NCBI GenBank assembly: GCA_015660995.1
Contig: JACTUC010000008.1
Span: forward strand, 10,645-74,644
Reading direction: 5' to 3'
From: Candidatus Methanomethylicaceae archaeon
GTDB lineage: Archaea; Thermoproteota; Methanomethylicia; Methanomethylicales; Methanomethylicaceae
DNA length: 64,000 nt
Position 1 is the stretch's first letter, and each line of letters begins with the position of its first letter. Below the pieces are notes generated by a model. It was not told where the DNA came from and searched no databases. It saw only the letters and a program-made list of their open reading frames with translations. The translations under genes were made by a program, and so were the position numbers. Shown here piece after piece: positions 2,876 through 44,512 of the stretch.

Positions 2876-3931
2876 TCATTCTATAACGCCAGTTATCCTG
2901 GCAAGGTCCTCGGCCGCTTCACGGGCAATCCCCTTCTCGCCAAGGATCGTGTACCTGTCTGCTCTTATCGTGTGGGCTATGGTCAGCGCCTCTATTATCT
3001 GCTCGTCCTTCATGCCAAGTTCCTTCGCGCTTGTCGGCGCTCCCACCTTTGATAGGACCTCCTTCACACTCTTCCAGTCCCCACCATGCAGATACATCAT
3101 CATTATCGTTCCGACGCCGCACTTCTCACCATGGAGGGCCTGCCCCGCGCATATCTTGTCAAGCGCGTGGCTGAAGAGGTGCTCTGATCCGCTGCATGGC
3201 CTGCTGCTTCCCGCTATACACATGGCGTAGCCGCAGCTGATGAGCCCCTCGATCATGGATCGTATCCCCACATCCAGCCCCCTATCTATGAGGTCGATGT
3301 TCTCGGTTATCAGCTCCGCTGACATGAGCGCCAGGGATGCTGCATACTCCCCATAATACTCCCCCCTAAGGCGGTGGGCAAGGCTCCAATCCCTGACTGC
3401 GGTGTATTTGGCGATTATATCGCCCACGCCGCTGACTATCTGCCTCCTCGGCGAGTTGGCAATAATGTCTATGTCTGCCAGGAGCGCCACCGGCGGATGC
3501 GCCATCGTCGAGGTGGATCCATTGCATCCCTTTAGCGATGCTACTGGGGATGCTATGCCATCATGGGCAGCTGACGTCGGGATGCTTATGAACTGTATGT
3601 TATGCTTGAATGAGGCGAGCTTGGCAATGTCGATCGTCTTTCCGCCGCCAACGCTGATCACAATTACTGACTTTGTGTCCTTTATGGCAGCCTCGACTGC
3701 CCCCAAGGTCTCCTCCGTCGCATCCTTCACCTTCACCACGTGTGTCGGGAGGTGCAAAACGTTGACGCTCTCTTCAACGATCCCCATCGGCTCCTTGGTA
3801 AAGGTCTCCCCGCAGAGCAGGAGAACGTCCCCGTTGACGTTCAGCCTAGTGAGTACCTCCCCGACCTTAGGTAGTACCTGTGGCCCCACTATAACAAACC
3901 TGGGCAAATTGATGGCATGGATGTGCATCAT
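2876..3931 (-). CDS. egsA: sn-glycerol-1-phosphate dehydrogenase
   Basis: GGGKTIDIAK nucleotide-binding motif and SAAHDGIASP metal-site region are typical of archaeal G1PDH. Length 351 aa fits. Confidence 0.9.
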   Translation of the reverse strand: MMHIHAINLPRFVIVGPQVLPKVGEVLTRLNVNGDVLLLCGETFTKEPMGIVEESVNVLHLPTHVVKVKDATEETLGAVEAAIKDTKSVIVISVGGGKTIDIAKLASFKHNIQFISIPTSAAHDGIASPVASLKGCNGSTSTMAHPPVALLADIDIIANSPRRQIVSGVGDIIAKYTAVRDWSLAHRLRGEYYGEYAASLALMSAELITENIDLIDRGLDVGIRSMIEGLISCGYAMCIAGSSRPCSGSEHLFSHALDKICAGQALHGEKCGVGTIMMMYLHGGDWKSVKEVLSKVGAPTSAKELGMKDEQIIEALTIAHTIRADRYTILGEKGIAREAAEDLARITGVIE

Positions 3932-4145
3932 CTCTACCGCCTCTTACCTATGGCACAGAAGGACTTTCTCATCCTATTAATATACATGGTTATCTCCATC
4001 ATGCGATCCCTTCAAGAAGGCGCTCCTTCCAAAACCGAAGGGACCTCTTTTCCTTCTGGTTGCCATCTACGTCACGCTTAAATATAAGGATAAAGTCCTT
4101 TCTAATTGACTTCGCTCATTCTTTCCGATCGCGGAGGAGTCCTCT

Positions 4146-8287: not shown

Positions 8288-8392
8288 GGGCCGGTAGCTC
8301 AGACTGGCAGAGCGCCCGCTTGGCATTGCGGGCATGCAGCCTCCGCACCAAAGTGCGGGAGGCCACGGGTTCAAATCCCGTCCGGTCCACCA
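8288..8392 (+). tRNA. tRNA-Ala (anticodon GGC) with a 28-nt intron between positions 37/38; CCA encoded
   Basis: Acceptor GGGCCGG/CCGGTCC gives the G3:U70 Ala identity pair, with A73. The D-arm is GCTC-AGACTGGCA-GAGC. Anticodon stem CCCGC/GCGGG only pairs after removing 8326-8353. T-arm is ACGGG-TTCAAAT-CCCGT. Confidence 0.75.
8326..8353 (+). other. Putative tRNA-Ala intron (canonical 37/38 position)
   Basis: TTGCGGGCATGCAGCCTCCGCACCAAAG. Removing it restores a 7-nt anticodon loop TTGGCAT. Contains a hairpin that could contribute to a bulge-helix-bulge. Confidence 0.6.
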
Positions 8393-17462: not shown

Positions 17463-17557
17463 GCTCCGGTAGTATAGTCCGGTCAAGTATACTGGCCTCT
17501 CGAGCATCAAAGCAGAGAAAGTCAGTGACACGGGTTCGAATCCCGTCCGGAGCACCA
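17463..17557 (+). tRNA. tRNA-Glu (anticodon CUC) with about 17-nt intron at 37/38; CCA encoded
   Basis: Acceptor GCTCCGG/CCGGAGC plus A73, and the characteristic Glu D-arm GTAT-AGTCCGGTCAA-GTAT. Anticodon stem CTGGC/GTCAG closes only after removing 17503-17519, giving loop CTCTCGA. T-arm is ACGGG-TTCGAAT-CCCGT. Confidence 0.7.
17503..17519 (+). other. Putative tRNA-Glu intron
   Basis: AGCATCAAAGCAGAGAA. Its 3' part (AGAG) can pair with the CTCT of the anticodon loop as expected for a BHB. The exact boundary is ambiguous by one A. Confidence 0.55.
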
Positions 17558-22669: not shown

Positions 22670-22858
22670 GCGGGACCGCCTGATCTTTACATATGTAAAG
22701 GGTTAATAAAAAAGTATTTAGTTCGATTCACCAGCTGCAGCGCGCTGACAGGGTGTAACCTAAGATTGATCGGTTGACCGAGCTAAAACTTAAATAAGCA
22801 TCCACAGAGTTCTATTTTTGCTCCCGTTTCAGGGAGCGAGGGCCTAGGTGGCCCGGGT

Positions 22859-22884
22859 TAGGAAACTCCGATGGTTTCCCCCGA
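22859..22884 (+). other. Putative non-canonical tRNA-His intron in the 8/9 region
   Basis: TAGGAAACTCCGATGGTTTCCCCCGA. Contains the strong hairpin GGAAAC-TCCGATG-GTTTCC. Required to bring acceptor 5' strand and D-arm together. Confidence 0.4.
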
Positions 22885-22913
22885 AGGGTAGCGGTCATCC
22901 CGGGGGCCTGTGG

Positions 22914-22930
22914 CGCTCAACAGCGCAGAA
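22914..22930 (+). other. Putative tRNA-His anticodon-loop intron (37/38)
   Basis: CGCTCAACAGCGCAGAA. Same 17-nt length as the tRNA-Glu intron. Contains hairpin GCGCT-CAACA-GCGC. Confidence 0.5.
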
Positions 22931-22989
22931 AGCCCCAGTTCGCGGGTTCGATCCCCGCCCCGGGCCCTCCAAGTATCTTCTCAGCAAGT

Positions 22990-38920: not shown

Positions 38921-40192
38921 ATGGCCGATTTCACCATCAGGAGTATAAAGGCAAGGGAGATACTCGACTCGCGTGGGAACCCAACGGTCGAGGTGGACGC
39001 AACCACCCAGGCCGGATTCGGAAGGGCTTCTGTCCCCTCCGGCGCCTCAACGGGAACCTACGAGGCGGTGGAGCTTAGGGATGGCGGGAGTAGGTTTCAT
39101 GGCAAGGGGGTGCTCAAGGCTTGCAGAAACGTAGACTCGGTCCTGGCTCCAGCCATTGTAGGGATGGACTCCCGCGACCTTGCCGAGATAGACAAAAAGA
39201 TGATCTCGCTGGACGGTACGGACAATAAGTCCCGGCTTGGCGCAAATGCCATATTGGGCGTATCCTTGGCGGTCGCAAAAGCAGCCGCCGACACGGCAGA
39301 GTTGCCTCTCTTCAAATACCTTAACCCAGACTCCTACCTGCTGCCTGTCCCGCTTATGAACATAATAAACGGCGGCAAGCACGCTGGAAGCAGCCTCGCA
39401 ATCCAGGAATTTATGGTCGTTCCCGTGGGCGCGAAGTCGTTGAAGGATGCTCTGAGAATCGGCTCGGAAGTCTACATGGAGCTGAAAAAGATCCTGAAGG
39501 AGAGCTATGGTCCCTCCGCTATCAATGTGGGGGACGAAGGGGGATTCGCTCCTCCCATTTCGGACTCGCGTACCGCCTTTGGTTCCCTTATCAAGGCGAT
39601 CAAGGGGGCGGGATACACCGAAAACGATGTCAAGATTGCCATCGATTCAGCAGCTACAAGCTTCTACGGCAACGGGAAGTACTCGATAGATGGTGAAACT
39701 CTCGCACCGGACGCGCTTCTAGCTCTCTATGAGAGGCTGGTAGGCGAATACCCAATTATCTCCATTGAAGACCCCTTCGAGGAGGACGATTATTCCTCCT
39801 TTGTGGCAATAACCAAGAACCTTGGCAAGAAGGTTCAGATAATCGGCGACGATATCTTCGTGACCAACATCAAGCGATTTGAAAAGGGCGCTGCCATGGG
39901 TGCTGCCAACTCCCTGCTTCTCAAGGTAAACCAGATAGGCACACTGACCGAGGCAATTGAGGTCGCCAAATACGCCTTCAGCAAAGGCTACACGGTTGTC
40001 GTGAGCCACCGCTCAGGCGAGACGGAGGATTGCTATATTGCAGACCTTGCCGTGACCCTCAATGCCGGACAAATAAAAGCAGGAGCGCCTGCGAGGGGGG
40101 AGAGGATCTCAAAGTACAACCAGCTCATAAGAATAGAAGAGCTGCTGGGTTTGAAAGCAATGTTCCCTGGAAAGAGCGCTTTCAACAGGTGA
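38921..40192 (+). CDS. eno: Enolase
   Basis: Full enolase signature (SHRSGETED, IKLNQIGT equivalents). Confidence 0.95.
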   Translation: MADFTIRSIKAREILDSRGNPTVEVDATTQAGFGRASVPSGASTGTYEAVELRDGGSRFHGKGVLKACRNVDSVLAPAIVGMDSRDLAEIDKKMISLDGTDNKSRLGANAILGVSLAVAKAAADTAELPLFKYLNPDSYLLPVPLMNIINGGKHAGSSLAIQEFMVVPVGAKSLKDALRIGSEVYMELKKILKESYGPSAINVGDEGGFAPPISDSRTAFGSLIKAIKGAGYTENDVKIAIDSAATSFYGNGKYSIDGETLAPDALLALYERLVGEYPIISIEDPFEEDDYSSFVAITKNLGKKVQIIGDDIFVTNIKRFEKGAAMGAANSLLLKVNQIGTLTEAIEVAKYAFSKGYTVVVSHRSGETEDCYIADLAVTLNAGQIKAGAPARGERISKYNQLIRIEELLGLKAMFPGKSAFNR

Positions 40193-43039: not shown

Positions 43040-44512
43040 CTAGTTGTCTTTCTCGTCCTTCCTAGTTGGAGTAAAGACCTCATTCACTATCGTCTTGAAT
43101 AATTTTTCAACTAACTCGCTAGGCATGGTTCTAATTAATTGATTGATCAAAGTCATCTGCGAACCACTATCTTCATCAGGGGTACTCAGTGAATGAGAAA
43201 TAGCGGCTACAAGCGAATTTAGTTCCTCTGGATTAAAACTGATGCGGGAAACATCGTTGATGCTTTTATCCCGATTCTGAATATTTTTGTTCCTGACCGA
43301 TTCTGTGCATGTCTTCAGAGACTCAATGAATGGCTCAATGGAATACTCATGAGCAGCGGTGATAGTCATATGTAAAGATGCAACATTATTCAGCTCTTCG
43401 GAGCCGGGCTGGACCTGAAGATACCACCCTTTGGATTTCATCAGGTCTGCGATCTGGAAAATATTAACATCGCCTCTTCTAAAAGCCACGATGCTCGCCT
43501 CCGGTTTGCCTAGAATTTCGTAACCTAAGCCTTCAAGACCCCGTATCAGCTTCTCTCTTGCAATTAGCACTTTTTTTGATAGTTCTATGTAACCTTTCTT
43601 TCCCAAATAGTTCAAGGTTGCCCATGATGCAGCAAGGGGTCCTTCCGATCTCGTTGATTGAAGTGTGGTATTTGCCATTGGGTATCCAGGCCAGCTAGCA
43701 TTCGTGAATAATTGATGTATTCTTAGTTCTTTGGACCTGTAGAGTATCACTGAAGCACCTTTTGGAGCGTAGCCGTACTTGTGAAGATCAGCAGATATCG
43801 AAGTAACTCCCCTGACTGAAAAATCAAATTCAGGCAACTTCTCTCCTAGCAATCTGAAAAACGGAAGGATAAAGCCGCCTATGCAGGCATCCACATGTAA
43901 CCTTACACCCTTCTCTATGGCAATCTCTCCAAGACTTTCTATTGGATCAATAACTCCAATAGGATATGATGGTGCAGAACCAACAATAAGCGCTGTATTT
44001 TCATTTATTCTTCTTTCAACATCCTCAGCTTTTACTTTAAATGTCTTCTTGTCTACGGGGACGACCGTCAAGGTCATATCAAAAAAATCAGCCGCTTTGA
44101 TAAATGAAGGATGGCCAGTGCTAGGTATAATTACTTCTGGTCTTCCTGAACCTCCACATTTGTTTGCCCTATGGTAATCTCTTGCAGACTTTACAGCAAG
44201 CATATTGCTTTCTGTGCCACCACTCGTAAAGTTTCCAACAGTTGTATTATTTCCATTGAGGAGAGATGCAGTCATGGCCACAATATCATTTTCAAGCATA
44301 AGCACACTAGGAAAGACTGTAAAATCAAGGGCGTTCTTGTTCATGAATTCCCAATAAAATTCTCGGATTCTATCAAGTTCTTTATTTCCAGATTCATATA
44401 CATATGAAAATAATTTTCCTTTGTTATCCGGCATATCATGCTTTGAGAATTCACGAAGACCCTTACGAATCTCATAAAAAGACAGACCATCATCTGGCAA
44501 ATCTTTTAACAT
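43040..44512 (-). CDS. PLP-dependent group II decarboxylase / sphingosine-1-phosphate-lyase-like enzyme
   Basis: SGGTESN and SADLHKYGYAPKGASV (Lys of HK binds PLP) match the SPL/GadA fold-type I family. 490 aa with the N-terminal extension typical of SPL-like members. Confidence 0.75.
   Translation of the reverse strand: MLKDLPDDGLSFYEIRKGLREFSKHDMPDNKGKLFSYVYESGNKELDRIREFYWEFMNKNALDFTVFPSVLMLENDIVAMTASLLNGNNTTVGNFTSGGTESNMLAVKSARDYHRANKCGGSGRPEVIIPSTGHPSFIKAADFFDMTLTVVPVDKKTFKVKAEDVERRINENTALIVGSAPSYPIGVIDPIESLGEIAIEKGVRLHVDACIGGFILPFFRLLGEKLPEFDFSVRGVTSISADLHKYGYAPKGASVILYRSKELRIHQLFTNASWPGYPMANTTLQSTRSEGPLAASWATLNYLGKKGYIELSKKVLIAREKLIRGLEGLGYEILGKPEASIVAFRRGDVNIFQIADLMKSKGWYLQVQPGSEELNNVASLHMTITAAHEYSIEPFIESLKTCTESVRNKNIQNRDKSINDVSRISFNPEELNSLVAAISHSLSTPDEDSGSQMTLINQLIRTMPSELVEKLFKTIVNEVFTPTRKDEKDN

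Follow-up and report, generated by a model that had tools for sequence, protein, structure and literature searches.

A tRNA-His(GUG) gene of Methanomethylicia with two predicted bulge-helix-bulge introns, one of them at position 9/10

Introns that form a bulge-helix-bulge (BHB) motif at non-canonical positions, and tRNA genes with several introns, are documented from Crenarchaeota (especially Thermoproteales), Thaumarchaeota, Korarchaeota, Nanoarchaeota, ARMAN and a few methanogens (PMC4090602, PMC4033280, PMC3218864, PMC8450103). Positions recorded for Pyrobaculum and similar organisms include 3/4, 20/21, 22/23, 25/26, 29/30, 45/46, 56/57 and 59/60, among others (PMC4090602, PMC3218864), and among the transposed introns of Thermoproteales, similar sequences recur from one tRNA gene to another (Fujishima 2010, cited in PMC4090602). 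Relaxed motifs call for a splicing endonuclease of broad specificity, of the (αβ)2 or ε2 type. An (αβ)2 form of the splicing endonuclease EndA, which cleaves relaxed motifs, has been reported for Asgard and TACK archaea, and the pre-tRNA-Glu(UUC) of Methanopyrus kandleri carries introns at 20b/21 and 37/38, the D-loop intron being of the relaxed HBh' type (PMC5829648). Maturation of the split tRNA-His of Nanoarchaeum equitans and of other split or permuted tRNAs also needs BHB cleavage; in these systems a G/C-rich leader or trailer that is complementary to a segment elsewhere in the precursor guides folding, and in Thermofilum the clue came from a promoter at an unusual distance (PMC4090602, PMC3218864). 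Such non-canonical introns, including those found in Thaumarchaeota and Korarchaeota, are missed by generic finders (PMC8450103, PMC4033280), whereas tRNAscan-SE 2.0 looks for them by default (PMC8450103).

The locus described here lies at 22850-22966 on the forward strand of a 64,000-nucleotide stretch (the window) of contig JACTUC010000008.1 from a Candidatus Methanomethylicaceae archaeon. It is very probably a functional tRNA-His(GUG) gene of the class Methanomethylicia (Thermoproteota) with two BHB introns, the first of them at position 9/10. Its sequence, its motifs, the cloverleaf that it forms after splicing in silico, and its conservation and covariation were all demonstrated computationally; that the precursor is spliced, and exactly where, are predictions from these data. 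As in Thermoproteales and other Crenarchaeota such as Pyrobaculum, a short BHB intron outside the anticodon loop and a canonical 37/38 intron occur in one gene, the endonuclease and ligase pathway is presumably common to both groups, and current taxonomy places them in the same phylum. Unlike in Thermoproteales, however, the tRNA-His intron is fixed class-wide in a single isoacceptor and does not look like a recent transposition, and the window's two other tRNA genes carry canonical introns only; on inspection, and for these three genes only, their four introns have no obvious mutual similarity. The combination of a D-region intron with a canonical one is shared with M. kandleri, but the 9/10 intron of the window is a strict hBHBh' motif, which borrows strands of the acceptor stem and the D-stem. 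Like the split and permuted tRNAs, the gene would need BHB cleavage to mature, but it is contiguous and in normal order, and its leader complements its own 3' acceptor strand and not another transcript. It resembles the cases from Thaumarchaeota and Korarchaeota, i.e. non-canonical BHB introns in TACK archaea beyond Thermoproteales, in a different lineage.

The features of the gene and its flanks are collected in Table 1. Every element that the original prediction had listed for 22850-22966 is present in the sequence, and its main claim, a tRNA-His(GUG) from which both a 17-nt intron at 37/38 and a non-canonical 26-nt intron near the 5' end have to be removed, is supported, with G-1 encoded in the DNA.

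Table 1. Features of the tRNA-His(GUG) gene and its flanking sequences (window coordinates)
Feature	Position	Strand	Basis or remark
Putative promoter (BRE/TATA), AAAAC-TTAAATAA	22785..22797	+	sequence inspection
Leader hairpin, GCUCCC-GUUUCA-GGGAGC	22820..22837	+	-15.7 kcal/mol, z = -3.0
Leader segment GAGGGCCUAGG, proposed 'anti-acceptor'	22838..22848	+	complements 22959-22969
G-1	22850	+	sequence
Exon 1: G-1, acceptor 5' strand G1-G7 (GCCCGGG, 22851-57), U8, U9	22850..22859	+	
Intron 1, predicted at 9/10 (26 nt, AGGAAACUCCGAUGGUUUCCCCCGAA), strict hBHBh'	22860..22885	+	strict scanner, ViennaRNA
Intron 1, H helix (C4-G7 with CCCG)	22854-57/22880-83		4 Watson-Crick pairs
Intron 1, bulges UU|A and AA|G	22858-60 and 22884-86		3 nt each
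Intron 1, inner helix GGAAAC(U)/(G)GUUUCC	22861-67/22873-79		6-7 bp
Intron 1, outer helix	22851-53/22887-89		3 bp
Exon 2: tRNA positions 10-37	22886..22913	+	Rfam partial match; ARAGORN on spliced sequence
D-arm GGGU-AGCGGUCA-UCCC	22886-22901	+	within exon 2
Exon 2 after D-arm: G26, anticodon stem 5' strand GGGGC, C32 U33 G34 U35 G36 G37			
Anticodon stem GGGGC/GCCCC; loop CUGUGG + A		+	loop split by 17 nt (22914-22930)
Intron 2, canonical 37/38 (17 nt, CGCUCAACAGCGCAGAA), BHB	22914..22930	+	strict scanner
Intron 2, H helix (C32-U35/GCAG)	22908-11/22925-28		
Intron 2, bulges GG|C and AA|A	22912-14 and 22929-31		
Exon 3: positions 38-73 (A38, anticodon stem 3' strand, variable loop AGUUC, T-arm, acceptor, C73)	22931..22966	+	
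T-arm GCGGG-UUCGAUC-CCCGC	22942-58	+	
Acceptor 3' strand CCCGGGC	22959-65	+	
Discriminator C73	22966	+	
3' trailer CUC, no encoded CCA	22967..22969	+	unchanging in 22/22 homologues

The gene is not visible to standard searches. ARAGORN called no gene at 22850-22966 in the unspliced window sequence, and Rfam at its gathering threshold called only the window's two other tRNAs. A permissive Rfam tRNA search gave a sub-threshold partial match to model positions 7-64 at 22883-22959 (26.3 bits, E 0.002), as expected if the 5' acceptor strand alone is displaced; the same kind of search over the whole window (E<=1) found no further hidden tRNA fragments. When both inserts were deleted, ARAGORN called a 74-nt tRNA-His(gtg) with a regular cloverleaf. 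We use this result solely to show that such a cloverleaf exists: as a judge of the junction ARAGORN was dropped, since it accepted many alternative deletions and mis-assigned products to Tyr, Arg or Glu. A perfect 8-nt complement to the 3' acceptor end within approximately 60 nt upstream would be expected by chance about 1e-3 times (an arithmetic estimate). The features that point to histidine are the anticodon GUG, the G at 22850 opposite the C at 22966, and a loop that reads CUGUGG|A once spliced. In addition, 12 contigs from independent JGI, ENA and NCBI assemblies show 100% identity over a 201-bp region, indicating that the arrangement is not an assembly artefact.

Both junctions were located with a strict BHB scanner, in which a 4-bp helix is bordered by a 3-nt bulge 3' of each strand and by flanking helices, and the cut falls after the second base of the bulge. 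On the window sequence it gave exon ends and starts at 22859|22886 (26-nt intron) and 22913|22931 (17-nt intron), and intron 1 also passed a stringent scan (outer helix >=3, inner helix >=5, H helix all Watson-Crick). The original prediction had placed the non-canonical intron at 8/9 (22859-22884) and had suggested a test for BHB motifs at both junctions; the 26-nt intron near the 5' end proved real and each junction has a strict motif, but the 8/9 position is not supported and intron 1 moves one base to the right, to 22860-22885. The ViennaRNA minimum free energy structure (MFE) of 22850-22890 contains the inner hairpin and both 3-nt bulges, with C22854 paired to G22886 and not to G22883, so that the central helix is 3 bp there; given this near-equivalent register, the 9/10 assignment rests on the canonical 4-bp BHB rule. 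The cleavage rule was tested on the gene's own 37/38 intron, where solely a cut after the second bulge base gives G37-A38 in 22/22 homologues, and its application to intron 1 gives 9/10 with the intron at 22860-22885. The 9/10 call is thus a prediction from BHB geometry and from the invariance of G22883, which closes the 4-bp helix.

An intron 1 at 8/9, leaving a mature tRNA with U8-A9, is the alternative that survives best, and we regard it as unlikely. Both models produce an equal 74-nt tRNA, which ARAGORN accepts alike, and base 9 alone differs between them (U9 versus A9). An A at this position agrees with the intron-less His genes of Acidilobus and of metagenomes, and would be found in 16 of the 22 homologues, compared with 9 of 22 under the 9/10 model; with either model, however, some homologues have A and others U at base 9, which therefore does not decide the matter. 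Cleavage at 8/9 would demand a cut after the first nucleotide of the 5' bulge, or a central helix of 3 bp, whereas the behaviour of the 37/38 intron in all homologues, the invariant G22883 and the junction returned by the strict scanner all argue for the cut one base later.

The rarity of the motif was discarded as evidence for the 9/10 intron: stringent BHBs number three on the + strand and six on the - strand of the window, against 3-9 for each strand in 64 kb of shuffled sequence. It is not the BHB itself that is improbable, but its occurrence exactly at the sole junction that restores a perfect acceptor stem together with G-1. The other stringent BHB-like sites, at 40159|40185 (+) and at six places on the - strand (e.g. 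50092|50053 and 30146|30118), are within the number expected from shuffled sequence and were taken as chance. By inspection, no third BHB that could be formed by the leader and trailer fits.

The distribution of the gene was examined by a genome scan with one genome per GTDB species and with the T-arm and 3' acceptor sequence as query, which returned 33 loci. The layout found in the window is present in 21 of these, all from Methanomethylicia or from MAGs labelled Methanomethylicota, Thermoproteota or 'Nitrososphaerota', and including Methanosuratincola petrocarbonis LWZ-6, M. verstraetei LCB70, Methanomethylicus mesodigestus and M. oleisabuli. The common layout is GGCCCGGGU(U/A)|A, a variable hairpin, and CCCGA(A/U)|GGGUAG..., with the exon 1 sequence GGCCCGGGU unchanging in 22/22 homologues; the 9/10 intron is thus found in all 22 class members recovered by the scan (the window plus 21 loci), at lengths from 14 to 32 nt. 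A 37/38 intron of 15-17 nt is present in 20 of the 21 homologous loci, as it is in the window. The exception is MAG SKYB85 (JANXER010000010.1, 4430-4517, + strand; L033 below), whose tRNA-His reads CUGUGGA directly; together with the position of G-1 opposite C73, this supports the predicted His identity of the window gene. The same locus has the shortest 9/10 intron, a minimal one of 14 nt that forms a bulge-helix-loop without the inner helix. The window also shares gene order with its relatives at 67-74% nucleotide identity (POR subunits, tRNA-His, DUF362, THUMP, AIR-synthase-like and Cdc6), and this synteny and the shared layout place it in Methanomethylicia/Methanosuratincolia, the former Verstraetearchaeota, which NCBI now lists in the phylum Thermoproteota as Methanosuratincolia. 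An exact-protein look-up with the Orc1/Cdc6 ORF gave no match, probably because of a difference in start codon.

The intron sequences differ between these genomes, but over the 22-gene alignment intron 1 keeps 98.4% pairing in its inner helix, where compensatory changes on both sides are seen at three of the six pairs (CG/UA/AU, AU/UA/GC and GC/AU). When the 3' partners were slid by 1-3 columns, pairing of the whole tested structure fell from 96.4% to 40-52%, and none of 500 shuffles matched either the observed percentage paired or the covariation score of that structure. The intronic CCCG, which pairs with C4-G7, is invariant, and the adjoining bulge base is variable. The H and outer helices, in which exon bases take part, are invariant and hence carry no covariation signal, so that they are uninformative in this respect.

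Intron-less tRNA-His genes with a matching acceptor stem were found in Acidilobus, in Desulfurococcales and in some MAGs labelled Thermoplasmatota or Halobacteriales. A metagenome scan for an intron-less allele, with GGCCCGGGTWGGGTAGYGG as query, recovered eight real intron-less tRNA-His genes with the same D-arm sequence as the window; their anticodon stem and T-arm are different, which indicates another lineage, and they confirm the unusual D-arm as one that real tRNA-His genes use. Both the 5' end and the D-arm of the window gene recur in intron-less tRNA-His genes of other lineages. The metagenome scan recovered no intron-less allele of the Methanomethylicia type. Among the other loci returned by the genome scan, a Thorarchaeota MAG (CAVSBO010000011.1, approximately 3903-4010, - strand; L032) has a tRNA-His with a shared 3' end that is interrupted after about position 8-14, either by one insertion of approximately 28-30 nt or by two smaller ones, and for which a unique BHB splice model could not be derived; in two Promethearchaeota loci (L028 and L044) the 3' part alone matched.

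These data also bear on a reading that the original prediction had named under what would refute it, a pseudogene or different ncRNA; here it takes the form of a decayed tRNA gene, or of an ncRNA derived from a tRNA, broken by a 26-bp insertion. The silence of the standard tRNA finders (ARAGORN and Rfam) would fit such a reading, but it is contradicted by the retention of the split layout in 22 species-level genomes of one class, with invariant exons and compensatory changes in an insert that forms a strict BHB; with a conserved promoter motif besides, and with the intron-less allele of this class missing from the metagenome scan, we judge it very improbable. By established identity rules, G-1:C73 with G1-C72 marks His and not archaeal Tyr. 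A tRNA-Tyr(GUA) with an anticodon-loop intron at 35/36, which ARAGORN -i calls (as Tyr(gta) with a 17-nt intron) when insert 1 alone is removed, with comparable calls on two homologues (L024 and L034), can be dismissed almost entirely, because the gene has these His features, no BHB was seen on inspection at 35/36 (where two C residues would face each other in the would-be central helix), the 37/38 site has a strict BHB, and L033, without an intron there, reads GUG.

For the tRNA-His(GUG) gene with introns at 9/10 and 37/38, we infer a maturation pathway in which the choice of enzymes, the sequence of events and any contribution of the leader are deduced. The primary transcript would probably start near 22820, the BHB of each intron would be recognized by the archaeal tRNA splicing endonuclease (EndA), and the exons would then be joined by an RtcB-type ligase. 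In the precursor, the 3' part of intron 1 (CCCG) is predicted to pair with C4-G7 of the acceptor as the central 4-bp helix, the middle of the intron to form the hairpin of 6-7 bp, and the outer helix to arise between D-stem nucleotides 11-13 and acceptor nucleotides 1-3. As this BHB uses acceptor positions 1-7 and D-stem positions 11-13, it is incompatible with the mature acceptor stem and D-arm, and intron 1 would consequently have to be cut while the 5' acceptor strand is unpaired with the 3' strand. Once the exons are joined, the acceptor stem and D-arm would fold, RNase P would trim the leader so that the encoded G-1 stays, the CUC... trailer would be removed and CCA would be added.

The flanks of the gene are unusual as well. 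The AAAAC-TTTAA(A/T) motif, the putative promoter, is found upstream of other tRNA genes and is kept before the His gene of the 21 related loci. The motif ends 52 nt before G-1 in the window and 34-52 nt before it among the His genes, compared with 24-26 nt before the mature 5' end in five non-His tRNA genes, so that the leader of the His precursor appears unusually long, by 10-28 nt. Several relatives have hairpins of differing sequence at the position of the leader hairpin. By inspection, GAGGGCCUAGG pairs at 10 of 11 positions with the 3' acceptor strand, C73 and CUC trailer, and a G-rich leader segment complementary to the 3' acceptor strand is present in all relatives, with 7-11 leader bases paired with the 3' end in the ViennaRNA MFE structures of the 22 homologues. 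Without flanks, the BHB conformer was worse than the acceptor conformer by 9.0-13.5 kcal/mol in 22/22 genes, whereas the addition of 14 leader and 4 trailer nucleotides made it the better one by 0.4-6.7 kcal/mol in 21/22, because the leader segment then binds the 3' acceptor strand together with C73 and the CUC trailer. Shuffled leaders reached the observed value in 0-5 of 150 trials and random genomic 14-mers in 0/200. The leaders of the window's two other tRNA genes showed no pairing with their own 3' ends. The leader of L033, CUGGAGGGC, has a perfect 9-nt complement, GCCCUCCAG, that begins 12 nt downstream of C73.

From these folding energies we derive a tentative model, possible and on balance somewhat doubtful, in which the 9/10 intron is ancient and fixed in the class, and its removal may depend on a dedicated precursor with a built-in folding switch that forces splicing before end-processing. 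The anti-acceptor segment would hold the 3' acceptor strand, C73 and CUC, leaving the 5' acceptor strand free to form the BHB; once intron 1 is out, the acceptor stem would form and RNase P could act. The idea that the anti-acceptor is specific to genes with the intron was weakened by the finding of 3'-complementary leaders in five of seven intron-less His genes as well (in Acidilobus, Desulfurococcales and one Thermoplasmatota MAG). RNAalifold on 21 precursors preferred the acceptor conformer plus a short leader-trailer extension, and the paired bases of the leader and 3' end are invariant, which leaves no covariation signal. With regard to the 3' end, CCA is encoded in four of the five non-His tRNA genes checked (Ala and Glu of the window, and Glu of the related loci L040 and L041) and is not encoded in the Glu gene of L033.

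The two other tRNA genes of the window are more conventional. At 17463-17554 (+) the default ARAGORN call is Arg(tcg); the BHB sets a 17-nt intron (17503-17519) at 37/38 with the loop CUCUCGA, from which we assign the gene as tRNA-Glu(CUC), and an intron-less orthologue in L033 (2736-2810) has an identical reading. At 8288-8389 (+) there is a tRNA-Ala(GGC) gene with a canonical 28-nt intron (8326-8353) and a stringent BHB, the promoter motif of which ends 24 nt before the mature 5' end. A weak match to a C/D-box snoRNA at 43252-43301 (+) (SNORD50, 25.3 bits against a gathering threshold of 42, E 0.82) could be an archaeal C/D sRNA or chance. Elsewhere, the G+C content drops from about 0.55 to 0.43-0.51 over 40001-64000. 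The larger ORFs of this region seem ordinary (enolase, MFS transporter, PLP decarboxylase, GT2 glycosyltransferase, DUF72, MMPL transporter, methyltransferases and ABC ATPase), and none of the ten checked there was seen to be a mobile-element gene.

The original prediction had considered a multi-intron tRNA notable for this lineage, which is not supported: the class belongs to the Thermoproteota, within the TACK archaea, where non-canonical BHB introns and the heterotetrameric (αβ)2 endonuclease are documented (PMC5829648, PMC3218864, PMC8450103), and the gene is therefore a fairly ordinary case of a known archaeal phenomenon. Our literature search on tRNA introns in Methanosuratincola or Verstraetearchaeota found nothing, and position 9/10 is absent from the lists given in reviews (PMC4090602, PMC3218864), which are open-ended ('etc.'), so that its novelty is not established. 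What novelty there is lies solely in the special leader and in the fixation of the intron across the class. Generic finders miss the sole tRNA-His gene seen at this locus, and as a result annotations of MAGs from the class can seem to be without tRNA-His, which affects inferences about completeness and decoding. An intron that is kept class-wide at one site of one tRNA contrasts with the recently transposed introns of Thermoproteales, and with two cultured representatives of the class now available, direct tests have become possible both of the splice junction and of the proposal that an anti-acceptor leader lets the BHB form within the acceptor/D region.
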